From Candidatus Aminicenantes bacterium (GTDB lineage: Bacteria > Acidobacteriota > Aminicenantia > Aminicenantales > UBA4085), in NCBI GenBank assembly GCA_026393865.1, contig JAPKZI010000234.1, positions 288 through 64,287 of the forward strand: DNA of 64,000 nt, written 5' to 3'. Positions 29,249-42,941 of the stretch are shown in pieces. The position numbers and the translations under genes were made by a program. Each line of letters begins with the position of its first letter. The stretch's first letter is position 1. The notes beneath the pieces were generated by a model, which saw nothing but the letters and a program-made list of their open reading frames with translations, did no database searches and was not told the origin of the DNA.

Positions 29249-29264
29249 TGGCACAAAATGTGCT
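29249..29264 (+). promoter_or_regulatory. Putative sigma54 (-24/-12) promoter TGGCAC-AAAAT-GTGCT
   Basis: tggcacaaaatgtgct has GG (29250-29251) and GC (29262-29263) separated by exactly 10 nt. It lies 24 nt upstream of the M1 peptidase start. Confidence 0.5.
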
Positions 29265-29287: not shown

Positions 29288-31948
29288 GTGATGAAACTGA
29301 CGTCATGGTTCGTCATCTGTTATAATAATAAGGTGAAAGGAACCGTCCGTAACCTTTTATGGGCCTGCGCGGCGGCCGTCCTCCTGGGCCTTCCCCTTTC
29401 CGGACAGACCGTCGACGACCTCCTGACCGGCCTCCAAGGATCGTTCGCTTCCAAGGACGTGGCCGCGTATGCCGGCGTGTTCAGTCCTGAAATCCGGGAG
29501 CGGGAGAGCGCCGCCATGTCCACCTATCTGAACAAGTGGCGGATGAACCAGGTCCTGTTCCATCGGGCCACCCGCGACCCCGACAAGGAAGGTGAACCCG
29601 GGATCTTTCTTCAGGTCTTTTTCCAGAACGACGATTCGGCCGTGCTCGAGATCTGGCGCGTCACGTTCGCCAAGGCCGGGGATGGATGGCGGATCCGGAC
29701 CAAGGAAGTGATGGGGAATATCACCGCCCTGTACAAGATCCGCATCCCCTCCGGGCGCGTCGAACGGGCCGCCCGGGTCGAGATCCGGCATCAGGACATC
29801 CTCATCACCTTCCAAGACGCTTGGATCTTCCATGACAATATCGAGGACCAGGAGACGGCCCTTGTCGTCATCGGCCGGGGACAGTTCCATTTCTCGCCCT
29901 CGAGCGATACCGAGAAGCACCAGCTTGAGCTCCGCTACAGGAAGAATTTCATCCAGGACTCTCTCGAATACGGCTATTTCCGTTTTTCCGACTCCTTCTT
30001 CCGGAGCCATATCACGATCGACAAAGCCCCGCCGGAGAAGACCCCGACGCTCTCCCAAGCCGACTCCAACCGGGCCTATTCGTTGTTCACCCGCTATTAT
30101 CCCAACTCGTTCACGATCGAGAATTCGTTGACGGGCGGCCGCCTTTCGTTCATCCCGCGGGGCGACCAGGCCGTCTTCGAGTTGAAGGGCAAGAAGACGG
30201 GCGATGTGGCCTATATCTATTCGCCGTTCTCCGACGACGAGATCCACTTCGTCGGCCGCAATCCCGATCAGGTCATCAACCTCTATACGCCCGAGATCAA
30301 GGGCGAGGAAGGCCTGAAATCGTTTTTCGTCTCCTTCGGGGAGAAATTCGACGTCCGGCGCTGCGACGTGGAGGTGGATTTCCAGCCGGATAAGCGCTAT
30401 CTCTCGGCCCGGGCCCGGATCGAGGTCAGCGCTCAGATCGACGCCGTCGAAAACCTGAAATTCAACTTCCACCCTGACTTCGAGATCCTCCGGATCTACG
30501 ACCAGGACGGCCGCGAGCTCTTCTATACTTTGGACAAGCAGCGCAAGCTCCTCTATATCTATTTCATCAAGCCCCTCGAAAAGAACGCCACGGGCGCGAT
30601 CGAGATCTACTATCGCGGAGCGATCGAGCCGCCCGGACTGATCCAGGACGTCATCTCCGGCGGCCAGTACAACGAGACGATCTCCTTCACCGAACCCCGC
30701 TACGACACGTTCTTATACAGCCAGTCGGCCTATTGGTATCCCCAGCCGGCGGAGGAAGACTACTTCCTGGCCAGCCTCCATTTCAGCATTCCCCCGGGAT
30801 ACACCTGCATCGCCAACGGGGAACTGGTCGAACAGGGGCGGCTCGAGGCGGTCCGACGCGTCATGACCCTCGAAAAAGTCGGCAACGCCCTCTATCACTT
30901 CGAGACCAAATTCCCCGTCAAATACCTGTCCTTCCTCGTCGGACGGCTCGACCGGATATCCAACGGCAACGGAGGCGGTCCGATCGGCATCCAGGGCTAT
31001 GTGGCTTCGGAGATCCGCGCCCAACGAAAAGGCCTGGTCGAGGATGCTCGAGCGATTGTCCAGAACTACTCGGCCTGGTTCGGCCCGTTCCCCTATGAGA
31101 AGCTGGATATCGTCCAGCGTCTCTGGCCGACGACCGGAGGCCATAGCCCGGCCTCCTTCATCGTCTTGAACGAACTGCCCCGGATCCCCAACGCTCCTCC
31201 TCTGGTCACGGCGAACAGCCCGGTGGACATGCCCCGCTTTCGTGAATATTATCTCGCCCACGAGATCGCCCATCAATGGTGGGGTCAGGCCGTGACCTGG
31301 GAACGTTATCGGGACCAATGGCTCAGCGAGGGACTGTCCCAGTTCGCGGCCGCGCTTCATGTGAGGGCGAAGTTCGGCGAAGAGGCTTACGCGGGCATCC
31401 TCAAGAAATTCTCGCAGTGGACCGAGCGCCTGGCCGATTGGGGGCCGATCACTCTGGGGTCGCGTCTGAGCTACCTCAATTTCGACGCGTACCAGGCCAT
31501 CGTCTATGACAAGGCGACGGTCGCCCTCAACATGCTCCGCGACCTCATCGGCGAGGAGGCGTTTTTCAGGGGCCTGCGCGGCTTCTTCGAGAAATATAAA
31601 TATCGCCCGGCCCGGACGAACAATTTCATCCAGGCCATGGAGCAGACTTCGGGCCGGGACCTCCAAGCTTTTTTCAAAGGCTGGTTCGATACGCACGTCC
31701 TTCCCGAAATTGATACCGCGCACGAGATCTTGAAGCGGGGCGACGCTTACATCGTGAAAATCCGGGTCAACCAGACCCGGGGCAATTTTGTCTTTCCGCT
31801 CTGGGTCCAGTGGGAGGAGAACAAGAAGACGGTCCGGAAGATGATGGAGATCGGCGCGGCGACCCAGGAATTCGAATTTCCGGCGGCATTCCGCCCGGCC
31901 AAGATCAAGATCAATCCCGACAAGCTTGTCCCGGGCAACTTCAAATAA
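29288..31948 (+). CDS. Exported M1-family zinc aminopeptidase with long N-terminal extension
   Basis: 886 aa with HEIAHQWWG (HExxH) followed by WLSEGLSQF (third ligand Glu). It has a signal-like segment LLWACAAAVLLGLPLSG. The track start is GTG at 29288, with ATG at 29291; the true start is uncertain. Confidence 0.8.
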   Translation: MMKLTSWFVICYNNKVKGTVRNLLWACAAAVLLGLPLSGQTVDDLLTGLQGSFASKDVAAYAGVFSPEIRERESAAMSTYLNKWRMNQVLFHRATRDPDKEGEPGIFLQVFFQNDDSAVLEIWRVTFAKAGDGWRIRTKEVMGNITALYKIRIPSGRVERAARVEIRHQDILITFQDAWIFHDNIEDQETALVVIGRGQFHFSPSSDTEKHQLELRYRKNFIQDSLEYGYFRFSDSFFRSHITIDKAPPEKTPTLSQADSNRAYSLFTRYYPNSFTIENSLTGGRLSFIPRGDQAVFELKGKKTGDVAYIYSPFSDDEIHFVGRNPDQVINLYTPEIKGEEGLKSFFVSFGEKFDVRRCDVEVDFQPDKRYLSARARIEVSAQIDAVENLKFNFHPDFEILRIYDQDGRELFYTLDKQRKLLYIYFIKPLEKNATGAIEIYYRGAIEPPGLIQDVISGGQYNETISFTEPRYDTFLYSQSAYWYPQPAEEDYFLASLHFSIPPGYTCIANGELVEQGRLEAVRRVMTLEKVGNALYHFETKFPVKYLSFLVGRLDRISNGNGGGPIGIQGYVASEIRAQRKGLVEDARAIVQNYSAWFGPFPYEKLDIVQRLWPTTGGHSPASFIVLNELPRIPNAPPLVTANSPVDMPRFREYYLAHEIAHQWWGQAVTWERYRDQWLSEGLSQFAAALHVRAKFGEEAYAGILKKFSQWTERLADWGPITLGSRLSYLNFDAYQAIVYDKATVALNMLRDLIGEEAFFRGLRGFFEKYKYRPARTNNFIQAMEQTSGRDLQAFFKGWFDTHVLPEIDTAHEILKRGDAYIVKIRVNQTRGNFVFPLWVQWEENKKTVRKMMEIGAATQEFEFPAAFRPAKIKINPDKLVPGNFK

Positions 31949-32022
31949 ACTCCGCCGGATTTTGCCGCCCTTCCGTCCTTGCCTTACAATAAAAAGCACG
32001 GCCTGTGGTATTAAAGGCTGGC

Positions 32023-32129
32023 CTCGTCAAGGGACGAGCCTTCGGCTCGCCACTCGCCCGTGGTTTGTATCCACGGGCGAGTACGGCGGAAGTGGACGCC
32101 CGGGCAATGCCCGGGGCCCCCGCCGCCGT
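32023..32129 (+). other. Cluster of GC-rich stem-loops in an intergenic region (possible terminator stack or structured RNA)
   Basis: H1 is ctcgtc/gacgag (32023-32038). H2 is cgagcc/ggctcg (32035-32049) and shares its 5' arm with the 3' arm of H1. H3 is an 11-bp stem ctcgcccgtgg/ccacgggcgag (32053-32081). H4 is cccgggc/gcccggg (32099-32115), nested inside H5 acggcgg/ccgccgt (32083-32129). Confidence 0.5.
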
Positions 32130-32132
32130 GGA

Positions 32133-32162
32133 TTGACAGGGATTCGGCCCGAGGACTATAGT
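32133..32162 (+). promoter_or_regulatory. Putative sigma70 promoter (TTGACA-18-TATAGT) for the sigma54 response-regulator gene
   Basis: ttgaca lies at 32133-32138 and tatagt at 32157-32162. The ATG is at 32182. Confidence 0.4.
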
Positions 32163-32181
32163 CTTTTTAGGGAATGCGAGG

Positions 32182-33573
32182 ATGCCGGCAGCGACAATAA
32201 AAGAAGATCGGGCGGATGGCCATGAGATCGTTTCGCCGGCCTCTCTGCGCGTTCTCGTGGTCGATGATGAGCTCAACATCCGCAGGACCCTCACGATCTG
32301 CCTCGAATCGGACGGCCATCGGGTCACGTCCGTCGCCAACGTCCAAGACGCCCTGGCGGAGGCCTCGCGACGGAGCTTCGATTTGGCCTTCGTGGATATC
32401 CGGCTGGGGACGGAGGACGGCCTCGATCTGATCCCGGCCCTGCGGGCGACGGCGCCCTGGCTGAAGATCATCATCATCACCGCGTACGCCTCCATCGATT
32501 CGGCCATCGAAGCCATGCGGCGCGGCGCGACCGATTACATCCCGAAGCCGTTCACACCCGCTCAGATCCAACTGGCCGTCCGAAAGGCCTTCGAGATGCG
32601 GACGCTCGAACAGCGGGTGGCCAGCCTTCAGGAGGATCTCGGCCGGGCCCATCCCGAGATCGATTTTTCGAGCGCTTGTCCGGCCATGCAGCGGGCGGTG
32701 AATCTCGCCCGCCAGGCGGCCGCGTCCGACGCGACGATCCTTCTGCGCGGGGAGAGCGGGACCGGAAAAACCTTCCTGGCCAGGGCGATCCATGCATGGA
32801 GCCGCCGGGCGGAGAAGACCCTTGGGGTCGTTTCCTGTCCCTCCTTTTCCCGGGAGCTCTTGGAAAGCGAGCTTTTCGGGCATGTGAAAGGGGCCTTTAC
32901 CGGCGCCGTCCGCGACAATCCCGGCCGCCTCGCCGCCTGCGAGGGCGGGACGCTGTTCCTGGACGAGATCAGCGACCTTCCTCTAGCCTTGCAACCGAAA
33001 CTGCTTCGCTTCGTCCAGGACAAGGAATACGAGCGCGTCGGCGAGGCCGTGCCGCGCAAGGCCGAGGTGAGACTGATCGCCGCCACGAATATCGTCCTGG
33101 AGAAAGCGGTCAAGGAAGGCCGGTTCCGGGAGGACTTGTATTATCGGATCAACGTGATCCAGATCGAGATCCCGCCCCTGCGCGAGCGTCCAGAGGATGT
33201 GGTCACCCTGGCCGGGCGTTTGCTGGCCTTTCACGGCCGGAACAATCACCGGCTGGACCTGGCCTTCACGAACGAGGCGCTCGAAGCGCTCCGCCGGCAT
33301 GCTTGGCCGGGAAACGTGCGCGAACTGAGCAACGTAGTGGAACGGGCGGCCATCCTGTGCCGGACAAACCGGATCGGAATCGAAAGCCTCCCCGCCGTTC
33401 TTGTGCCCGGCGACGCCGCGCCGAAGATCGGCGATCCGGTGACGCTCGAGCGGATCGAGGAAGAGCACGTCCGTCGCGTCCTGGCCGGCGCGAGATCGCT
33501 TCAAGAAGCGGCGGACATCCTCGGCATCGACCAAGCCACCCTCTGGCGGCGCCGAAAAAAATACGGCCTCTGA
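32182..33573 (+). CDS. Sigma54-dependent response regulator (REC + AAA+ EBP + Fis-type HTH)
   Basis: 463 aa with a REC domain (VLVVDDE...DLAFVDIRL), Walker A GESGTGKT, the GAFTGA sigma54-contact motif, and a C-terminal HTH (AADILGIDQATLWRRRKKYG). Confidence 0.9.
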   Translation: MPAATIKEDRADGHEIVSPASLRVLVVDDELNIRRTLTICLESDGHRVTSVANVQDALAEASRRSFDLAFVDIRLGTEDGLDLIPALRATAPWLKIIIITAYASIDSAIEAMRRGATDYIPKPFTPAQIQLAVRKAFEMRTLEQRVASLQEDLGRAHPEIDFSSACPAMQRAVNLARQAAASDATILLRGESGTGKTFLARAIHAWSRRAEKTLGVVSCPSFSRELLESELFGHVKGAFTGAVRDNPGRLAACEGGTLFLDEISDLPLALQPKLLRFVQDKEYERVGEAVPRKAEVRLIAATNIVLEKAVKEGRFREDLYYRINVIQIEIPPLRERPEDVVTLAGRLLAFHGRNNHRLDLAFTNEALEALRRHAWPGNVRELSNVVERAAILCRTNRIGIESLPAVLVPGDAAPKIGDPVTLERIEEEHVRRVLAGARSLQEAADILGIDQATLWRRRKKYGL

Positions 33574-33701
33574 GCGTTTCTCTACCTCCTATCTTGCAAG
33601 ATGAAAGGGTCTTTTTTCCAGTTCTTGCGATTTTCAAGGCGCGGATTTTGAATATAAACTGTAATCTATTTATTATCAATAGGATAAGATGAATTTCTAA
33701 T

Positions 33702-33717
33702 TGGCATAATTCGTGCA
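33702..33717 (+). promoter_or_regulatory. Putative sigma54 (-24/-12) promoter TGGCAT-AATTC-GTGCA upstream of the kinase-kdp operon
   Basis: tggcataattcgtgca has GG (33703-33704) and GC (33715-33716) separated by 10 nt, 25 nt upstream of the ATG at 33742. A perfect 12-bp palindrome ATCTTGCAAGAT (33591-33602) and a related TTCTTGCGATTTTCAAG lie about 80-110 bp upstream, where EBP sites are expected. Confidence 0.55.
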
Positions 33718-33741
33718 AAGAATCCGGCCAGGGAGAAAAAA

Positions 33742-35583
33742 ATGTTCGGACTCCGACAAAAATTGGCTTTGGGATTCGGTGTTCTTTTTCTCATCATGGT
33801 CGCCATCGGCGTGCAAAGCATCCTCAATCTTACGAAATTGGGGGAATCGATCGACGTCATCCTTCGGGAGAACTATCGCAGCGTCATCGCCTGCCAGCAG
33901 ATGAAAGAAGCCTTGGAACGGATCGACAGCGGACTCCTCTTCGTCCTCCTAGGAGACGGCCGGAGCGGTGAAGAGATGATCCTTAAAAATCAAGGGATCT
34001 TCGAAAAGGCTCTCCAGGTTGAGCTGAACACCATCACCTTGCCCGGCGAAGGCGAGAAGGCCGCGAATCTCAGGGACCTTTACGAGCGGTACAAAAATTC
34101 GCTGGCCGCCGTCAGGGATCCGGCGGCCTCGGCGCTGCAGCGCCACGACGCTTATTTTCTGATCCTCCTTCCCCTCTTCGGGCAGATCAAAGCGGTATCG
34201 GACGAGATCCTCCAGATGAATCAGCAAAACATGAGCGATGCCAACAACGAGGCTCGCGACAGCGCGGCCAGGGCTCGACAGCAGATGTACGGCCTCCTGC
34301 TGATCGGGACGATCGCCGCGGCAGCGTTAATGGCCTTCGCCGGACGATGGATCCTGCGTCCCATCCGGCGCCTGATCCGTTCCACGGACGAAATCCGGCG
34401 GGGCAATCTCGATCTGGTTGTTCCCGCCGGCGCCCGGGACGAGATCGGCCATCTGTCCGAGTCCTTCAACGCTATGACGGCGAGCCTGCGGGAATTCCGC
34501 CGGACCGATCAGGCCAAGCTCTTGCGGGTCCAGCAGGCTACTCAGCAGGCGTTCGACAGCCTTCCCGACGTTGTCGCCGTGATTGACCCGGAGGGAAAAG
34601 TGGAAGTGGCGACGGCATCGGCTAAAAACATCTTCGGCTTATGGCCCGAGGCGACGATCATGGACCTGCCGTTCCCGTGGATCACGGACCTCTTCCGCGG
34701 CGCTTTCACGGAAGGACGCCGCATAACGCCCAAGGACCAGCCCCTGATCCAGCAATTCGTGCAGGGCGATGAGCGCTATTACCGGCCGGAAGCGGCGCCT
34801 ATCCTGAACAAGGAACGGGGAGTGACGGGCGTGATCCTGGTCTTCCAGGACGTCACCCAGCTCCGCCAGCAGGATGAGCTCAAACGGGACGTCATCCGGA
34901 CGGTCTCGCATCAACTTAAAACCCCTCTGACATCCATCCGCATGGCCATCCACCTCCTGCTCGAAGAGCGGGTCGGCGGCTTGACCGAAAAACAGGCCGA
35001 GCTCCTTGTCGCGGCCCGGGAGGACAGCGATCGCCTCTCCGGCATCCTCAACAATCTTCTCGATCTCAGCCGTATGGAATCCGGGAAAGGCCGGCTCGAA
35101 TTCCGGGCCGCTTCACCGCAGTCGATCGCCATGGACGCGCTGGAATCCGTCCGGCGAACCGCCCAGGACCAAGGCTTGAATCTCGGCGCCGAACTGAGGG
35201 GCGATCTGCCGGATGTCTGGGTCGATCCGAGCCGGATCAGCCATGTCTTCGGCAACCTGCTCTCCAACGCGCTCAAGCACACCTCTCCCGGCGGTCGGAT
35301 CACCCTCTCCGCTCGGGCGGAAGAAGAGTTAGTCCGTTTTTCGATCTCCGACACCGGAGCTGGTATTCCGGCCGAATGCCTGACGAAAGTGTTCGAGCCG
35401 TTCTTCCGCGTCCCCGGCCGCGGCAACGAGCAGGGCGCGGGACTCGGCCTGACCATCGCCAAGGAGATCGTCGAGGCTCATGGCGGAACGATCGGCGTGG
35501 AAAGCCGCGAAGGCCAGGGCGCCGTTTTCACCTTCACTCTGCGGCGGGCCGACCGCATCGGGAACGCGGAGCGTCCCTCATGA
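33742..35583 (+). CDS. Sensor histidine kinase (periplasmic four-helix-bundle-like + HAMP + PAS + HisKA/HATPase)
   Basis: 613 aa with two TM segments flanking a helical periplasmic region and a HAMP domain (WILRPIRRLIRST...LSESFNAMTASL). It has H-box VSHQLKTPLTSI and ATPase boxes LSNALKHT, DTGAGIP and GAGLGLTIAKEIV. Confidence 0.85.
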   Translation: MFGLRQKLALGFGVLFLIMVAIGVQSILNLTKLGESIDVILRENYRSVIACQQMKEALERIDSGLLFVLLGDGRSGEEMILKNQGIFEKALQVELNTITLPGEGEKAANLRDLYERYKNSLAAVRDPAASALQRHDAYFLILLPLFGQIKAVSDEILQMNQQNMSDANNEARDSAARARQQMYGLLLIGTIAAAALMAFAGRWILRPIRRLIRSTDEIRRGNLDLVVPAGARDEIGHLSESFNAMTASLREFRRTDQAKLLRVQQATQQAFDSLPDVVAVIDPEGKVEVATASAKNIFGLWPEATIMDLPFPWITDLFRGAFTEGRRITPKDQPLIQQFVQGDERYYRPEAAPILNKERGVTGVILVFQDVTQLRQQDELKRDVIRTVSHQLKTPLTSIRMAIHLLLEERVGGLTEKQAELLVAAREDSDRLSGILNNLLDLSRMESGKGRLEFRAASPQSIAMDALESVRRTAQDQGLNLGAELRGDLPDVWVDPSRISHVFGNLLSNALKHTSPGGRITLSARAEEELVRFSISDTGAGIPAECLTKVFEPFFRVPGRGNEQGAGLGLTIAKEIVEAHGGTIGVESREGQGAVFTFTLRRADRIGNAERPS

Positions 35584-35663
35584 CCGACCTCATCTATATC
35601 GCCCTGGCGGTTCTTTTTTTCGGCCTCTGCGGCCTGTACGCGCGGGCCTGCGAAAGGCTGTGA
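35580..35663 (+). CDS. 27-aa hydrophobic peptide (not in ORF track), possible KdpF-like accessory
   Basis: The sequence is MTDLIYIALAVLFFGLCGLYARACERL*. Its ATG overlaps the kinase stop (ATGA at 35580-35583) and it lies immediately upstream of kdpF. Confidence 0.35.
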   Translation: MTDLIYIALAVLFFGLCGLYARACERL

Positions 35664-35666
35664 CCC

Positions 35667-35750
35667 ATGGGAGATCTGCTCGGGATCATCGTTGCGCTTC
35701 TCTTGATCGTTTATCTGTTCGCCTCGATCCTGCGGCCGGAGAAATTCTAG
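35667..35750 (+). CDS. kdpF: K+-transporting ATPase subunit F
   Basis: The 27-aa sequence MGDLLGIIVALLLIVYLFASILRPEKF* is a single TM helix ending in the KdpF-typical LLRPE(K/R)F tail. It lies 7 nt upstream of kdpA. Confidence 0.7.
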   Translation: MGDLLGIIVALLLIVYLFASILRPEKF

Positions 35751-35757
35751 GAGGCGT

Positions 35758-37509
35758 TTGAACATGGACCTTTACGGGTGGATTCAGCTGGCCCTTTTCC
35801 TCGGCCTCCTTGGTCTTCTGGCCAAACCCGTCGGCCTTTATCTTGTCCGGGTTCTGGACGCCCAGGGAAAAACATTTTTAGACCGCGTTCTTAAGCCCGT
35901 CGAACGGAGGCTATACCGTTTTATGGGGGTTGACCCGCGGAAAGAGCAGGATTGGATACACTATACGGTCTCCTTATTGGCCTTCAGCCTGGCCGGGCTT
36001 TTGTTCACGTTTGCCGTTCTCCGGCTCCAGCACTTCCTTCCGTTGAATCCCCAAAAACTGGGTCCGGTCGGTCCGCACCTCGCCTTTAACACCGCGGTCA
36101 GTTTCACGACCAACACGAACTGGCAAAACTATGCCGGCGAGACCACCTTATCCTATTTTTCCCAGATGGTCGGTCTCGTCTTCCACAATTTCGTCTCTGC
36201 GGCCGCCGGGATCGCCGCCGCGGCGGTCCTCGTCCGCGGGATCGCCCGTCATTCGACGAGGGCCCTCGGCCATTTCTGGGTCGATCTCGTCCGGGTGAAT
36301 CTCTACCTGTTGCTGCCGGCCAGCCTGATCTTCTCGATCTTTCTAGGATCGCAGGGCGTCGTCCAGAATTTCAATCCCGCCGTCATAGCCGCGGCCGTTG
36401 AAACCGCGTCTCCTCGAGATTCAAGAACGGAGGCCGGCGCCCAGACTATCGCCCAAGGCCCTGCGGCCTCGCAAGTGGCGATCAAAATGCTGGGGACGAA
36501 CGGAGGAGGCTTTTTCAACGCCAACGCCGCCCATCCGTACGAGAACCCGACGCCCCTGTCCAACTTCATCCAGATGCTTTCCATCTTGTTGATTTCGAGC
36601 GGCTTGACTTATTATCTGGGACGGACCGTCCGGAACCAAGGCCACGGCTGGGCCGTCTGGTCGGCCATGGCCCTGCTCTTCCTTGCTTCGGTCCTGATCT
36701 GCTGGCGGGCGGAAAGCGGGGGCAATCCCCGCTGGACGGCGCTCGGCGTGGACCCGGCCGCCGGGAACATGGAGGGTAAAGAGGTCCGTTTCGGGGCTTT
36801 CGATTCCGCCCTCTTCGCCTCCGTCACCACGGCCGCCTCCTGCGGCGCGGTGAATTCCATGCATGATTCGTTCACGCCGCTCGGAGGGCTCATTCCGCTT
36901 TTCAACATCCAATTGGGGGAGGTCGTGTTCGGCGGCGTGGGCGCCGGTCTTTACGGGATGTTGGTCTTCGTCGTGCTGGCCGTATTCCTGACAGGGCTGA
37001 TGGTCGGCCGATCGCCCGAATATCTAGGCAAGAAAATCGAAGCGTATGACGTCAAGATCAGCGTCCTCGCCGTCGTCATCCTCTTTTTCAGCATTCTCGG
37101 CTTTTCGGCCTGGGCGGCCGTCACCCAATGGGGAACGTCCGCCCTGCACAACGCCGGGCCGCACGGCCTGAGCGAGATCCTCTACGCGTATTCGTCCGGA
37201 ACTGGCAACAACGGGAGCGCTTTCGCCGGGCTGAACGGAGACAGCCCGTCCTACAACGTCACGTTGGCTTTGGCCATGCTTGCCGGTCGCTTCCTGATGC
37301 TGGTCCCCGTGATGGCCTTGGCCGGGAGCTTGGCGACCAAGAAAAGAATACCCCCCTCCGGGGCGAGCTTTCCCGTCGCCGGATGGATGTTCACCATTAT
37401 CCTTGTCGCCACGGTTCTGATCGTCGGAGCGCTGACATTCCTTCCGGCCCTCGGCCTCGGCCCGATCGTCGAGCACTTCGTCATGACGGGGTCGTCGCTT
37501 CTCTATTAG
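35758..37509 (+). CDS. kdpA: K+-transporting ATPase subunit A
   Basis: 583 aa, polytopic. KdpA selectivity-filter-like segments are present ([39 protein letters not shown]). The track start is TTG at 35758, with an in-frame ATG at 35764. Confidence 0.9.
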
Positions 37510-37519
37510 CGGGGAAAAC

Positions 37520-39541
37520 ATGGCCGCCATCCACCATTCCCTCTTTGACCGGCGCATTGTCGGCCGGGCGATGCTTGATTCCTTCAAGAAACTGAACCCG
37601 CTGTCGCTCCGGAAAAATCCGGTCATGTTCGTAACCGCGGTCGGCGCCGTCATGACGACGCTCGGCCTCGTCGTCCGCTCCGGGAAGGAATCCGCCGGCT
37701 TCGTCTTTCAGATCAGCCTCTGGCTGTGGTTCACGGTGCTCTTCGCGAATTTCGCCGAAGCCATGGCCGAAGGGCGCGGCAAGGCCCAGGCGCGGGAGCT
37801 GCGCAAGACCCGCACTTCGACCATCGCCAACCGCCTTCGGGAGGACGGAACGATCGAGGCGGTCCCGGCGGAACGCCTGCGGAAGGCCGACCTCGTTCTC
37901 GTCGTCGCCGGCGAGATCATCCCGGCGGACGGTGAGATTATCGAGGGCGCTGCTTCTGTGGATGAATCCGCCATCACGGGCGAGTCCGCCCCCGTCATCC
38001 GGGAAGCGGGCGGAGACCGGAGCGCGGTCACCGGCGGGACGCGGGTCCTTTCCGACCGGATTAAAGTCCGCGTCACGGCCGACCCGGGAGAGAGCTTTTT
38101 GGACCGGATGATCAATCTCGTCGAAGGCGCCGAGCGCCGCAAAACGCCGAACGAGATCGCCCTGACGATCCTCCTCTCGGCGCTGACGATCATTTTCCTG
38201 GCAGTCATACTCACCTTGGGACCGCTCGGCCGTTATTCCGGCGTGTCGTTCACGATCACGAGTCTCGTCGCGCTCCTCGTCTGCCTCATCCCGACCACGA
38301 TCGGCGGCCTCCTCAATGCCATCGGCATCGCCGGCATCGATCGCATGGTCCAGAAAAACGTCCTAGCCATGAGCGGCCGGGCGGTCGAAGCGGCAGGGGA
38401 TGTGGATGTCCTTCTTCTCGATAAGACCGGGACCATCACCCTGGGCAACCGCCAGGCCGCCGCCTTTCTCCCGGCGGCCGGCGTGACCATCGACGAATTG
38501 GCCAACGCCGCCCAGCTCGCCTCGCTGGCCGATGAAACGCCCGAGGGACGGAGCATCGTTGTCCTGGCGAAGACATACGGCTTCCGCGGCCGGGCCCTGT
38601 CCGAGCTGCCCGAAGCGAAATTCATCCCTTTTTCGGCCCAAACGCGGATGAGCGGCGTGGATATCGACGGCCGGCGGATCAGGAAGGGCGCTCCCGATGC
38701 CGTCCGGGCGTTCATCGGGCAGAACGTTCCCGCCGAAGTCCTGGATTCGATCAGCGTCATCTCGTTTTCCGGCGGGACCCCGCTTCTCGTGGCCGAGGGA
38801 AGCCGGGTCCTTGGCGCCGTTCATTTGAAGGACATCGTCAAGGGAGGGCTCAGAGACCGCTTCGAGAGGTTCCGGGCCATGGGTATCAAGACGGTGATGA
38901 TCACCGGCGACAACCCGCTCACTGCGGCGGCCATCGCCCGGGAAGCGGGCATGGATGATTTCGTCGCCGAGGCCAAGCCGGAGGACAAATTGAGATTGAT
39001 CCGGAGCGAACAGGCGGCCGGGCACCTCGTGGCGATGACCGGGGACGGGACCAATGATGCCCCCGCTTTGGCCCAGGCCGACGTGGGCGTGGCTATGAAC
39101 ACAGGGACGCAGGCCGCCAAGGAGGCCGGGAACATGGTCGACCTCGATTCGAACCCGACCAAGCTGATCGAGGTCGTCGAGATCGGCAAGCAGATGCTCA
39201 TAACCCGGGGGGCCTTGACGACATTCAGCATCGCCAATGATGTGGCCAAATACTTCGCCATCATCCCGGCCATGCTGGTCGGCGCCTTCCCGGTCATCGC
39301 CCCTCTGAACATCATGGGCCTCCGGTCGCCGGCGAGCGCTATCCTGAGCGCCGTCATTTTCAACGCCCTTATCATTATCGCCCTGATCCCACTGGCCCTG
39401 CGCGGGGTGCGCTTCCGTCCCCTGGGCGCGACGGCGCTGCTCAAACGGAATCTCCTGATTTACGGCCTCGGCGGTCTCCTTGCTCCATTTGCCGGGATCA
39501 AACTGGTGGACATGGTAGTGAATGCGCTCCATCTTATATAA
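37520..39541 (+). CDS. kdpB: K+-transporting P-type ATPase subunit B
   Basis: 673 aa with the phosphorylation motif DKTGTIT, the hinge [17 protein letters not shown], and TGES in the actuator domain. Confidence 0.95.
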
Positions 39542-39562
39542 AATGGAAAGAGGCCCTGGATA

Positions 39563-40156
39563 ATGAAGGACTGGATATCGGAGATACGGACCTCGGCGGC
39601 GGCGGTCATTTCCTTGGCCGTCCTGTTGGGCGGCTTCTATCCTCTTGCCGTCTGGGTCTTGAACCAGGGATTGTTCCCGGCCAAGGCCAATGGTTCGCTG
39701 GTCCTTCGGCAGGGACAGGTCGTGGGATCGAGCCTCATCGGCCGGGATTTCTCGGGTCCAGCCTATTTTCATCCGCGGCCTTCGGCCGCCGGCCGGGGTT
39801 ATGACGCCCTTCGTTCCGGTGGCAGCAATCTCGGTCCCACGTCGCGGGAATTGATCGAGGCGGTCCGCCGGCGCGTCGCGGCATACCGGGCCGAAAACAA
39901 TCTTGCCGCGGACGTCCTCGTGCCCGCCGACGCGGTCACCGCTTCGGCAAGCGGACTCGACCCCCACATTTCCTTGGCGAATGCGTTCTTGCAGGCTCCT
40001 CGAGTGGTTGCAGCGCGGGGCCTGTCCGAAGAAGCTGTGCGCAAGCGGATCGAAGCCTGCGCCGAAGGCCGGGACCTGGGCTTCCTGGGACAGCCTCGGG
40101 TGAATGTCCTGAAATTAAACCTAGCCCTGGACGGAGTTCATGATGGCGGACGATAG
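39563..40156 (+). CDS. kdpC: K+-transporting ATPase subunit C
   Basis: 197 aa with an N-terminal TM anchor. The KdpC pattern is present (GSSLIGRDF..PAYFHPRPSA...SGGSNLGPTS...VPADAVTASASGLDPHIS). Confidence 0.9.
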   Translation: MKDWISEIRTSAAAVISLAVLLGGFYPLAVWVLNQGLFPAKANGSLVLRQGQVVGSSLIGRDFSGPAYFHPRPSAAGRGYDALRSGGSNLGPTSRELIEAVRRRVAAYRAENNLAADVLVPADAVTASASGLDPHISLANAFLQAPRVVAARGLSEEAVRKRIEACAEGRDLGFLGQPRVNVLKLNLALDGVHDGGR

Positions 40157-41843
40157 GGCCGGCGCCTTTCTCCAGATGATTCGCCGCTCGCAGCGCGGGC
40201 GGCTGAAAGTCTATCTCGGGTACTGCGCCGGCGTGGGCAAGACCTATCAAATGCTTCAAGAAGGCCATCGGCTGAAGAACGAAGGCATCGATGTCGTCAT
40301 CGGGCTGCTCGAGACGCACGGCCGGTCCGCTATCGCCGGTTTGGCTGAAGGCCTGGAGGTCGTTCCTCGCCGCCGGCAGGAATATCACGGCATAGCCGTG
40401 GACGAAATGGACATAGAGGCTGTGTTGGCCCGCAAACCGCAGGTGGCTCTTATCGACGAGCTCGCCCATCCCAACGTTCCGGGCAGCCGGAACGCGAAAC
40501 GATACGAGGATGTTCAAGATATTCTGGCAACGGGAATCCATGTCATCACCACGCTGAACGTCCAGCATCTGGAGAGCCTCTACAACGTCGTGGAACAGGC
40601 TGTGGGCGTCAAAGTCCGCGAGCGCCTGCCGGATTCGGTCCTGGCCGAGGCGGACCAGATCGTCGATGTCGATCTGGCGACCGAGGACCTCCGGAAACGG
40701 TTGGAGGAGGGCAAGATCTACTCGGCCGACCGCATCGGGACCGCCCTGGCTCATTTCTTCGTCCCCTCCAATCTGGAAAAGCTCAGGGAGCTCACCCTCC
40801 GCGAACTCGCCTCGCAGATCGATCTCCGGCGGCGCGAGACGCAGGACGATGGGCAGAGCACGGCGGACCAGATCATGGTCTGCTTGAGCGCGCACGGTCC
40901 CAACAGCGAGAAACTGCTGCGCTACGGATCGCGCTTGGCCGGGAAGCTCAACCGGAATTGGTATGCCGTTTATGTCCAGACACCGTCGGAAGAAGCCACG
41001 GTCATCGACGCTCAAACCCAACGCTTCCTCTCGGACGCGCTAACCCTGGCCAAGCAGCTGGGCGCCGTCGTGTTCACGTACAAGGGCGAGGATATCGCCG
41101 ATACCGTCCTTCGCTTCGCCCAGGAATATCGCGTGGGTCATATCGTCGCCGGGAGGTCCCGGCCGAAGCCGTTCTGGAAAAGGTTCGGCCGGAACAAGGC
41201 CGTCGTCGAGACGCTCCTCAAGAACGCCGAAGGAATGACGGTGATCGTTCTCGATACGTGCGGGGATATGCCTCCGCCCTCCACCCGGACGGCCATGGAG
41301 ATGCCGGATAACGAGGGTCCGGCGGAGCCGGATAGAACCCGCGGGAGCCCGTTCGCAGAGGTTCTTCGCCTGAGCGCCTGCCTATCCGCGCGCCGCATCG
41401 TGATCTGGGATGGACCGATCCGCAAAGAGGACGTCCTGAGAACACTGGCGGCGGCCGCCGTGGACGAGAACCGGATCGAGGACGCGGAGGGCTTGTTCGG
41501 CGATATCATGAAAAGAGAGGCCCAGGGGTCGACCTTTTTCAACGAGGGAGCGGCGTTCCCGCACGTCCGCGTCGCGGGCTTGTCCGCGCCGGTCGTCGCC
41601 GTGGGATTGACGAAACGGGGCGTATCCGACGTCTCGACGGAAAAGCCGATCGAGATCGTCTTTCTCATTCTCTCGCCGGCCGATACTCCAGATATGCAGG
41701 TCAAACTTTTAGGCTGGGCCAGCCGGGCCGCCCAAAACCGACAACTCTTCCAGACGCTTAAAGCCGGCCGATCTCCCCAGGATGTTTTAACGGCCATCCT
41801 CCGCTGGGAAAATCCGACGGTCTTTGTGCGTCCGAAGGATTGA
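40140..41843 (+). CDS. Kinase-less KdpD N-terminal sensor + Usp domain fused to a PTS EIIA(Ntr)-type domain
   Basis: 567 aa with the KdpD N-domain (GRLKVYLGYCAGVGKTYQML...VITTLNVQHLESL) and a Usp-like domain (IMVCLSAHGPNSEKLLRYGSRLA). The C-terminal PtsN-like EIIA domain has GAAFPHVRV (phospho-His context) and IEIVFLILSP. There is no TM, HisKA or HATPase region. Confidence 0.85.
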   Translation: MMADDRAGAFLQMIRRSQRGRLKVYLGYCAGVGKTYQMLQEGHRLKNEGIDVVIGLLETHGRSAIAGLAEGLEVVPRRRQEYHGIAVDEMDIEAVLARKPQVALIDELAHPNVPGSRNAKRYEDVQDILATGIHVITTLNVQHLESLYNVVEQAVGVKVRERLPDSVLAEADQIVDVDLATEDLRKRLEEGKIYSADRIGTALAHFFVPSNLEKLRELTLRELASQIDLRRRETQDDGQSTADQIMVCLSAHGPNSEKLLRYGSRLAGKLNRNWYAVYVQTPSEEATVIDAQTQRFLSDALTLAKQLGAVVFTYKGEDIADTVLRFAQEYRVGHIVAGRSRPKPFWKRFGRNKAVVETLLKNAEGMTVIVLDTCGDMPPPSTRTAMEMPDNEGPAEPDRTRGSPFAEVLRLSACLSARRIVIWDGPIRKEDVLRTLAAAAVDENRIEDAEGLFGDIMKREAQGSTFFNEGAAFPHVRVAGLSAPVVAVGLTKRGVSDVSTEKPIEIVFLILSPADTPDMQVKLLGWASRAAQNRQLFQTLKAGRSPQDVLTAILRWENPTVFVRPKD

Positions 41844-41876
41844 ACGGGAGTCGCGGACCAGACTTCAAACGGATGA

Positions 41877-42941
41877 TCAGCGGCGATCCAGGACCAGGGT
41901 CTGGCCGAACTTCATGACCAGGAACTCCTCCGGCCGCAAGCCCGCCTCCTTTACCGCCCGGCGCAGATAGAGCGGCGGCTCGCCGAGAGGTTCCTCGGTC
42001 TGCTTGAATGTTCCCCAATGCATACCGATGGAAAGGGCTGAGCCGAGATCCCGGTGGGCGAGCACCGCCTCCACCGGATCCATGTGCATGGGGCGCATGA
42101 ACCACCGCGGGCGATAGGCGCCCAGAGGGAGGAGAGCCAATCGGATTGGGCCGAATCGGCTCCCGATCTCCTTGAAATGGGGGGCGTACCCCGAGTCCCC
42201 GGCGAAGCAGATATTTCCCTGTTTTGTTTCGATCACCCACCCTGCCCACAGCTCATGGTCGAACGAGAACGGCCCGCGGCCGGAGAAATGCTGGGCGGCG
42301 ACGGCGTGAAAGAGGACATCGTCTATGAAAGAGGTCTGTCCCCAATCCAGCTGGGAGACCCGGCTGATCCTCAGCGCCGCGAACCAGCCTTGGAGCCCGA
42401 GCGGGACGAAATAGCGGGGTTTGTTCCCCAAATTCTTTATCGTCGACTTGTCCAGGTGGTCGTAGTGGTTATGGCTGATGAGAACCGCGTCGATACGCGG
42501 CAGATCGTGGAAGGGGATGCCCGGCGGCGCTTTCCGCTTGGGCCCGGCGAAAGACACGGGCGAGATCCGGTCGCTGAAGACGGGATCGGTCAGGATGTTG
42601 AGCCCGCCGACTTGGATCAAAAAGCACGAGTGGCCGATCCAGGTGAGTTGGATCTTCGCCGGATCCGGATGGCGGATAAGGTTCAGATCGGGAGGGACGA
42701 TCTCCGGCGCATAGGGCGGAACCTGGTCCGGAGGGATGGGCGGGATCTCCTTGGGCCCAAAACCCAACAGCCAGCGGAGAACGCTGCCGAAGCCGCGGCG
42801 CTCGGGCACCTCGTAGAGATTCTTGAATCCGTTCTTCGTGTGATGGAGCGGCCGGTCCGATAGAGAGACGGGCGTCTGGGACACGAAGCAGGCCAGGACC
42901 GAGAAGGAGAGGACGACGGTCAGGATCGTCATTGTTCTCAT
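41877..42941 (-). CDS. Exported MBL-fold metallo-hydrolase (NAPE-PLD-like)
   Basis: 354 aa with a signal peptide and the metallo-beta-lactamase motif LISHNHYDHLD. WIGHSCFLIQ is present in the N-terminal part. Confidence 0.8.
   Translation of the reverse strand: MRTMTILTVVLSFSVLACFVSQTPVSLSDRPLHHTKNGFKNLYEVPERRGFGSVLRWLLGFGPKEIPPIPPDQVPPYAPEIVPPDLNLIRHPDPAKIQLTWIGHSCFLIQVGGLNILTDPVFSDRISPVSFAGPKRKAPPGIPFHDLPRIDAVLISHNHYDHLDKSTIKNLGNKPRYFVPLGLQGWFAALRISRVSQLDWGQTSFIDDVLFHAVAAQHFSGRGPFSFDHELWAGWVIETKQGNICFAGDSGYAPHFKEIGSRFGPIRLALLPLGAYRPRWFMRPMHMDPVEAVLAHRDLGSALSIGMHWGTFKQTEEPLGEPPLYLRRAVKEAGLRPEEFLVMKFGQTLVLDRR

Follow-up and report, generated by a model that had tools for sequence, protein, structure and literature searches.

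The window analysed here, a 64,000-nucleotide stretch from a Candidatus Aminicenantes metagenome-assembled genome (MAG; contig JAPKZI010000234.1, positions 288 to 64,287), contains a kdpFABC potassium-pump operon that is preceded by the genes of a sigma-54-type activator and a histidine kinase. All genes of this locus lie on the + strand. The activator open reading frame (ORF; 32182-33573) codes for 463 amino acids comprising a receiver (REC) domain, an AAA+ domain with the GAFTGA motif and an HTH_8 domain, and is separated by a 168-bp spacer (33574-33741) from the histidine kinase gene (33742-35583), whose product is organized as a transmembrane segment, a periplasmic four-helix bundle (4HB), a further transmembrane segment, and HAMP, PAS, HisKA and HATPase domains. 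There follow an ORF for a 27-residue hydrophobic peptide, MTDLIYIALAVLFFGLCGLYARACERL (35580-35663), a putative small membrane protein, and then kdpF (35667-35750), kdpA (35764-37509), kdpB, which encodes the P-type ATPase subunit (37520-39541), and kdpC (39563-40156), all four of them matched by their Pfam and NCBIfam models. The final gene of the operon (40140-41843) encodes a 567-residue fusion of a KdpD N-terminal domain, a Usp-like region and a PtsN-like EIIA domain, with no kinase core; the gene that comes after it is convergent.

Neighbouring genes from the kinase through the fusion either overlap or lie 3-21 nt apart: the stop of the kinase gene and the start of the 27-codon ORF share an ATGA at 35580-35583, and the fusion gene overlaps kdpC by 17 nt. 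On account of these overlaps and short gaps, the genes from the kinase onward can be regarded as one transcription unit, as a preliminary description of this DNA had proposed for the kinase and kdp. The gene order and coordinates which that description gave from the activator to kdpC, as well as the ATGA overlap, were found as described, although its operon stopped at kdpC and left out the ninth element of the series, the gene at 40140-41843. Terminator-like matches within the operon (4, against 4.8 expected from shuffled sequences) are no more frequent than in shuffles and were not taken as real. A scan of positions 31800-42100 against Rfam returned no known RNA element at E values up to 0.1, and a c-di-AMP riboswitch or another known RNA element ahead of kdp is consequently unlikely.

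The spacer between the activator and kinase genes is AT-rich (~45% GC, against ~63% in the flanking genes) and contains, on the + strand at 33702-33717, a predicted sigma-54 -24/-12 promoter, TGGCATAATTCGTGCA, which has the canonical GG-N10-GC spacing and ends 24 nt before the ATG of the kinase gene. Matches to TGGCAY-N5-KTGCW are scarce: the 64-kb window holds two, whereas 0.08 are expected from shuffles, and both copies sit just upstream of + strand genes. For comparison, we fetched 80 loci encoding relatives of the fusion gene, and most of those that reach far enough upstream carry the same activator-kinase-kdp cassette. Among the 52 loci with a delimitable activator-kinase spacer, 40 have a -24/-12 element (at most three mismatches to TGGCAC-N5-TTGCA) 24-36 nt before the kinase start. 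These loci stem from MAGs labelled Aminicenantes, Krumholzibacteria, Syntrophales, Syntrophobacterales, Planctomycetota, Hydrogenedentes and others, and the sequence around the conserved element cannot be aligned among them. The sigma-54 promoter that the preliminary description had placed at 33702-33717 is thus present, rare by chance and conserved in its position.

The upstream regions were also aligned on the promoter. The comparison of the window with 47 related loci yielded TTGCA-N3-TGCAA as the conserved unit. Two predicted upstream activating sites of this type are found in the window, a distal one, TTGCAAGATGAAA (33594-33606), and a proximal one, TTGCGATTTTCAA (33625-33637), with centres 103 and 72 nt upstream of the -24 GG and 31 bp apart; in the aligned loci the median centres lie 102 and 70.5 nt upstream of the same GG. 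Counting sites with at most two mismatches to TTGCA-N3-TGCAA, 42 of the 48 loci have two or more, as compared with a mean of 0.085 in shuffles. The spacing falls between 30 and 33 bp in 39 of these 42, most commonly at 32 bp (28 loci), or about three helical turns. Both of the palindromes that the preliminary description had pointed to in this region are present, and the second contains the proximal site, but the register of the first is not shared by the relatives: ATCTTGCAAGAT covers part of the distal site, with its centre displaced by about 3 nt from the conserved dyad, and we therefore rejected it as the binding unit.

In the assembly to which the window belongs (3.2 Mb, 240 contigs, 86% complete), a clean pair of sites occurs only at kdp, the one other candidate being located at a contig edge with a spacing of 35 bp. 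Because clean paired sites were found nowhere else in the assembly, this distribution suggests that the regulon of the activator may consist of a single operon. A possible site for IHF-type bending, TATCAATAGGATA (33674-33686), lies between the paired sites and the promoter; it is weak, having the WATCAA core only and lacking the TTR part. The full WATCAA-N4-TTR motif is seen at a fixed position between sites and promoter in 8 of the 48 loci. Shuffles give 0.23 such cases, and 19 of the 48 loci have the WATCAA core anywhere in the same 65-nt interval. We consider it likely (with a probability of roughly 0.85) that the sigma-54 promoter (33702-33717) drives transcription of the whole operon, kinase gene through fusion gene, and that it is controlled by the product of the adjacent activator gene, bound at the two palindromes.

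The activator gene itself has a candidate sigma-70-type promoter, TTGACA-18-TATAGT (32133-32162, + strand, 11 of 12 positions matching), and TTGACA-18-TATAKT recurs about 50 nt upstream of the inferred activator start in four related loci (L004, L015, L019 and L024); no TTGCA-N3-TGCAA sites are found at this promoter. Further upstream, the second sigma-54-type element of the window, TGGCACAAAATGTGCT (29249-29264), is situated 24 nt upstream of the ORF of an M1-family peptidase (29288-31948, + strand), the gene that precedes the activator. No pair of TTGCA-N3-TGCAA sites accompanies this element, which would for that reason need a different activator.

The activator matches the Pfam families Response_reg, Sigma54_activat, AAA_lid_14 and HTH_8. 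Where related loci carry a syntenic gene, identity to its product is 64-79% in most cases, and the Fis-type helix-turn-helix of the activator is strongly conserved. Its best NCBIfam matches are AtoC (368 bits, cut-off 714) and NtrC (364 bits, cut-off 559), and it reaches no equivalog cut-off in that collection. The kinase (4HB_MCP_1, HAMP, PAS_4, HisKA and HATPase_c) is 52-74% identical in the related loci that carry it, with a periplasmic domain as well conserved as the cytoplasmic parts. We rejected the idea that it represents a detached C-terminal half of KdpD, since its best NCBIfam matches are of the WalK, PnpS, PhoR and AtoS types, and KdpD lies outside the top 25. The preliminary description had the operon under a sigma-54 activator and a kinase other than KdpD. 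The first part of this proposal is supported by a cassette, a promoter and paired sites that are conserved across phyla; as for the second, the kinase is indeed not KdpD, but the N-terminal/Usp half of KdpD is present as the final gene of the operon.

In the textbook system, Kdp is controlled by KdpD and KdpE, and full-length KdpD spans ~900 amino acids (N-domain, Usp, transmembrane, GAF and DHp-CA parts). The only KdpD-domain gene in the window assembly is that of the 567-residue fusion, which lacks transmembrane segments, HisKA and HATPase. Eight related genomes, six of them single-chromosome records, give one KdpD-domain match each, in open frames of 560-619 amino acids which, given the length of full-length KdpD, fit the fusion and not KdpD. 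Full-length KdpD was accordingly found neither in the 86%-complete window assembly nor in these eight genomes. KdpE was likewise absent above the cut-off from the window and its assembly: two OmpR-type regulators are encoded on other contigs, their scores of 138 and 148 bits falling short of the KdpE cut-off (325), and both fit heavy-metal or MtrA/YycF types better. The preliminary description was therefore right that the window has no KdpE-like gene. The survey of related genomes that it envisaged shows linkage between kdp and the activator to be common, and a kdpDE pair elsewhere, which would have spoken against its reading, was not found by sequence in the assembly or in the eight genomes.

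The KdpD N-domain of the fusion protein scores 298 bits over the full Pfam model, with a Walker A motif GYCAGVGKT (G-X5-GKT) and the Walker B DE within IDELAH. The C-terminal domain matches Pfam PTS_EIIA_2 (66 bits), and its four highest-ranking sequence matches in the PDB are all PtsN. His475 aligns with the phospho-acceptor His73 of PtsN, which belongs to the PtsN AIPH motif. The Walker A GKT, the Walker B DE and His475 are each conserved in at least 98% of 80 homologues. The domain falls below the NCBIfam cut-off for PtsN and is thus PtsN-like rather than an equivalog. A Gln conserved in at least 98% of the fusion homologues takes the place of the first His of the E. coli PtsN THLH motif. 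Thousands of related proteins are present in metagenomes, and we found no publication describing a KdpD-N/EIIA fusion.

The genome also encodes potential inputs for such a protein. The assembly contains rpoN, in a cluster on another contig (C42:3209-10362) together with a putative hpf (175 amino acids), ptsN, and genes for a short HPr kinase, RapZ, EIIA-Man, HPr/NPr and EI; as judged from its gene content, this cluster is a complete regulatory phosphotransferase system (PTS) located beside the sigma-54 gene of an Aminicenantes genome. A diadenylate cyclase is present in the window assembly and in six related genomes, so that, with both systems encoded, PTS and c-di-AMP inputs are possible. The KdpD N-domain has been described as an atypical serine kinase that phosphorylates KdpB at Ser162 and shuts off the pump, and short KdpD/Usp proteins respond to c-di-AMP (PMC11018627). 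By analogy, the most likely job of the fusion would be that of a KdpD-N serine kinase switching off KdpB.

The principle of sigma-54-dependent kdp control is not new, and the window does not represent a new kind of system. In D. vulgaris, the sigma-54-dependent regulator DVU3334 binds its own kdp promoter, as determined by DAP-chip (Rajeev et al. 2011, PMC3333781), and Kazakov et al. 2015 (PMC4641369) list it among GAFTGA regulators, with potassium uptake as its function. The operon, DVU3339.1-DVU3334, comprises kdpFABC, DVU3336 (a K+-sensor domain plus Usp, described as K+ sensor and UspA only), the kinase DVU3335 and DVU3334, and in the authors' interpretation the D. vulgaris pair corresponds to a KdpD split in two (PMC3333781). 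The same study names a counterpart in S. fumaroxidans, Sfum_2622, which is 46% identical to DVU3334, and its Table S9 gives the sites: CGTTACATTTTGTAACG for DVU3334 in D. vulgaris, a half-site-N3-half-site palindrome, and CGTTTCATTTTGAAATG in S. fumaroxidans, upstream of the kinase gene Sfum_2621 (PMC3333781). The exact S. fumaroxidans 18-mer occurs in one of 96 genomes of that order (4.99 Mb), which, as the sole genome to hold it, we presume to be S. fumaroxidans. Its locus reads activator, sites, a GGCAC-N5-TTGC promoter, kinase, peptide, kdpF, kdpA, kdpB and KdpD-N/Usp; the window activator is 65% identical to its activator over 443 amino acids and the window kinase 43% identical to its kinase. 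Based on the shared gene order and the 65%-identical activator, the window operon is assigned to the published DVU3334/Sfum_2622 family.

All three systems encode, with kdpFABC, an NtrC-type regulator with GAFTGA, a PAS kinase and a KdpD-N/Usp protein devoid of a kinase, and their sites follow one scheme, TTNCA-N3-TGNAA, behind a sigma-54 promoter, with half-sites that differ: TTACA-N3-TGTAA in D. vulgaris, TTTCA-N3-TGAAA in S. fumaroxidans and TTGCA-N3-TGCAA in the window. They diverge in several respects. In D. vulgaris the regulatory genes lie downstream of kdpFABC and the promoter lies before kdpF; the KdpD-N/Usp protein of the presumed S. fumaroxidans has 388 amino acids and no EIIA domain, whereas the window and its closest relatives have one; and a single site per promoter was published for both species, in contrast to the two conserved sites ~32 bp apart of the window type, whose host is an Aminicenantes MAG. 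In E. coli, free PtsN binds the transmitter domain of KdpD. The window shares with that KdpD/KdpE and PtsN system the kdpFABC target, a KdpD N-domain with Walker A and B motifs plus Usp, and a PtsN-type domain tied to Kdp, but it has neither an OmpR-type KdpE nor the transmembrane/GAF/DHp-CA half of KdpD, uses a sigma-54 promoter that needs an AAA+ activator, and carries the PtsN-like domain covalently fused to KdpD-N/Usp. With short KdpD/Usp serine kinases such as DgKdpD of Deinococcus geothermalis (PMC11018627), the final gene of the window operon shares a KdpD N-domain plus Usp and the lack of a histidine-kinase core, and its genome has no detectable KdpE but does encode a diadenylate cyclase; the window differs in its separate, predicted sigma-54 two-component control of transcription and in the appended EIIA domain. 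A survey of KdpD architectures assumed that, in species with short KdpD forms and no KdpE, KdpD serves solely for post-translational control of the pump (Silberberg et al. 2024, PMC11018627). Finally, NtrBC, ZraSR and AtoSC resemble the window system in regulator architecture, in tandem palindromes upstream of a -24/-12 element and in a possible IHF site, and differ from it in that the window target is a K+ pump.

These comparisons suggest the following mechanism. The activator gene would be transcribed separately, probably from its own sigma-70-type promoter. The membrane kinase would sense a signal, likeliest K+ limitation or ionic/osmotic stress, through its 4HB and/or PAS domain and phosphorylate the receiver domain of the activator, which could then bind the two TTGCA-N3-TGCAA palindromes (centres ~70 and 102 nt upstream of the -24 GG) and remodel the sigma-54 holoenzyme at TGGCAT-N5-GTGCA, possibly aided by an IHF-type bend. 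The resulting single transcript would cover the kinase, the 27-residue peptide, kdpFABC and the KdpD-N/Usp/EIIA gene; as the kinase gene is inside the induced transcript, induction would also raise the level of the sensor, a positive feedback. The fusion protein, in turn, is most likely the serine kinase responsible for switching off KdpB, and through its EIIA domain the regulatory PTS of the rpoN cluster may provide a further input. In this scheme we infer the nature of the signal, which proteins exchange phosphate, where transcription starts and what the fusion protein does.

Several points weigh against transcription of the operon from this promoter by the adjacent activator, or against that activator acting alone. 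The -12 region of the window reads GTGCA in place of the consensus TTGCA, and both window sites carry one or two mismatches. The window motif resembles the DVU3334 site no better than it does the published motif of DVU3305, GTTGCA-N3-TGCAAC; DVU3305 is a paralogous stress regulator that also binds the D. vulgaris kdp promoter, and in all two further regulators bind there, so that control may not be exclusive (PMC3333781). Other regulators may thus converge on the window kdp promoter as well. Lastly, with the assembly 86% complete, a distant KdpDE is formally possible in the organism.

That incompleteness is what a hidden canonical pair would require: a KdpD/KdpE encoded in the unrecovered 14% would drive kdpFABC internally, leaving the sigma-54 element to serve the kinase gene only. 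We regard this as very unlikely, because the operon offers no non-coding room for such a promoter (the kinase and peptide genes overlap, and gaps of 3 and 13 nt follow up to kdpA), the eight related genomes, including the six single-chromosome records, carry just one short KdpD-domain gene, and the order of the cassette is kept in most related loci. The suspicion that the -24/-12 match and the palindromes are accidents of an AT-rich spacer could draw on the difference in GC content from the flanks and on the 12-nt palindrome whose register the relatives do not share, yet it appears extremely improbable in the face of position-specific conservation in at least 40 loci with diverged surroundings and of the low expectations from shuffles. 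A further explanation accepts the promoter and changes the signal: the pair would answer general envelope, osmotic or energy stress, and K+-specific control would be purely post-translational, via the KdpD-N serine kinase and c-di-AMP. Kinases of the 4HB-HAMP-PAS type are generic sensors with no recognisable K+ site, the window genome and six relatives encode a diadenylate cyclase, and short KdpD/Usp proteins respond to its product (PMC11018627); in D. vulgaris, moreover, a general-stress regulator also binds the kdp promoter, and kdp expression does not simply track DVU3334 (PMC3333781). We nevertheless find it unlikely, as K+ uptake genes accompany the regulatory pair across phyla (kdp or, in one case described below, KimA), and as the paired sites occur essentially only at kdp in the genome, a single-operon regulator arguing for a K+-related signal.

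Another proposal would add to, rather than replace, transcription from the sigma-54 promoter by the adjacent activator. The fusion protein might bind the kinase and relay intracellular K+, c-di-AMP or the phosphorylation state of the PTS, in a three-component circuit in which the kinase alone would not be the K+ sensor. Activator, kinase and fusion genes are adjacent, with no kdpABC between them, in two related loci (L055 and L062) from genomes in which no KdpA was found, and a gene for a KimA-type K+ transporter comes after the three in L055, although the kdp-less reading of both depends on the completeness of the MAGs. The near-invariance of the His aligned with PtsN His73 and the regulatory PTS (PtsN, HPr/NPr and EI) in the rpoN cluster would also fit, as would the interpretation of the D. 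vulgaris pair as a split KdpD (PMC3333781) and the interaction between PtsN and KdpD established in proteobacteria (PMC13104625). On the other hand, the kinase is not the C-terminal half of KdpD, KdpD N-domains have another demonstrated job in phosphorylating KdpB Ser162 (PMC11018627), and the presumed S. fumaroxidans has the same activator and kinase with a 388-residue KdpD-N/Usp protein lacking EIIA, so that EIIA would not be needed for the circuit. On balance we lean against this circuit, while granting it an appreciable chance.

Whatever the signal, the locus and its relatives point to a dedicated sigma-54 two-component system for kdp transcription in many mostly uncultured anaerobes, among them Aminicenantes and other Acidobacteriota, Desulfobacterota, Planctomycetota, Hydrogenedentes and Krumholzibacteria. 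As the principle has been known from D. vulgaris since 2011, with a counterpart named in S. fumaroxidans (PMC3333781), the value added here lies in the precise anatomy of promoter and enhancer, in the breadth of the distribution and in the link to an undescribed KdpD-N/EIIA fusion and to the 27-residue peptide. More speculatively, and with some doubt on our part, the activator, the 4HB-HAMP-PAS kinase and the KdpD-N/Usp(-EIIA) protein could form a portable three-part controller of K+ homeostasis that has moved between phyla and transporters. If so, the EIIA-fused form would wire the phosphorylation state of the PTS into both the transcription and the post-translational shut-off of K+ uptake, and the controller could be a major unstudied alternative to KdpDE outside Proteobacteria.

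The record titles of the related loci name Aminicenantes, Acidobacteria, Krumholzibacteria, Syntrophales, Syntrophorhabdus, Desulfomonile, Deferrimicrobium, Planctomycetota and Hydrogenedentes. In a Planctomycetota MAG (L055:4451-12289), the activator gene, sites, sigma-54 promoter, kinase gene and fusion gene are followed by a REC-TPR gene and a gene for a KimA-type K+ transporter (E = 4.7e-62 to PDB 6S3K), and KdpA was not detected in the genome. Provided that this MAG is reasonably complete, the three regulatory proteins can apparently serve another K+ uptake system, and the fusion would then have a role beyond the phosphorylation of KdpB. Across the phylum, 148 of 401 sampled genomes have a KdpD-N match, including fused, short and full-length forms as judged by query coverage and open-frame length. 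No activator homologue was detected near the short form in 18 sampled loci (tblastn, 5.5-20 kb fetched). An obligatory link of the EIIA fusion to the activator and kinase was rejected in favour of a frequent one, since the presumed S. fumaroxidans pair goes with a short KdpD-N/Usp protein and one fusion comes without an activator. In this last case (L103, G313:C5:536103-556102, Acidobacteriota), an EIIA-fused KdpD-N gene adjoins kdpA-C-B, and the 20 kb fetched hold no activator match; the fusion is for this reason not strictly tied to the sigma-54 system.

The 27-residue peptide, with a consensus of roughly M-x-D-L-x-F/Y...FFGLC..Y.R.CERL, is a conserved feature of most cassettes, where it is encoded between kinase and kdpF, and the presumed S. 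fumaroxidans locus has a similar small peptide ending in CEKI. It matches no Pfam or NCBIfam family. A profile of the peptide finds exactly one match in the window assembly and further matches just upstream of kdpA in Acidobacteriota loci in which no activator homologue was detected by tblastn. From this occurrence next to kdpA, the peptide is predicted to belong with the Kdp pump and not with the regulators, and a role as a kinase-specific partner (compare MgrB for PhoQ) was rejected on the same grounds. Possibly it is a small membrane protein associated with Kdp that has so far gone undescribed.

Seven loci (L059, L060, L061, L067, L074, L079 and L106, the last being the presumed S. fumaroxidans) have a divergent pump, with KdpA 36-42% and KdpB ~58-61% identical, and about 0.9-1.9 kb of additional sequence between kdpC (or kdpB) and the KdpD-N gene. 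Such loci suggest that two Kdp lineages have each come together with the regulatory module. In three loci of the Deferrimicrobium type (L062, L063 and L070), the activator and kinase genes lie ~800 bp apart, and in one of them this gap contains an ORF of 165 amino acids with no Pfam match (L062:3476-3973), the sigma-54 element being placed upstream of that ORF.

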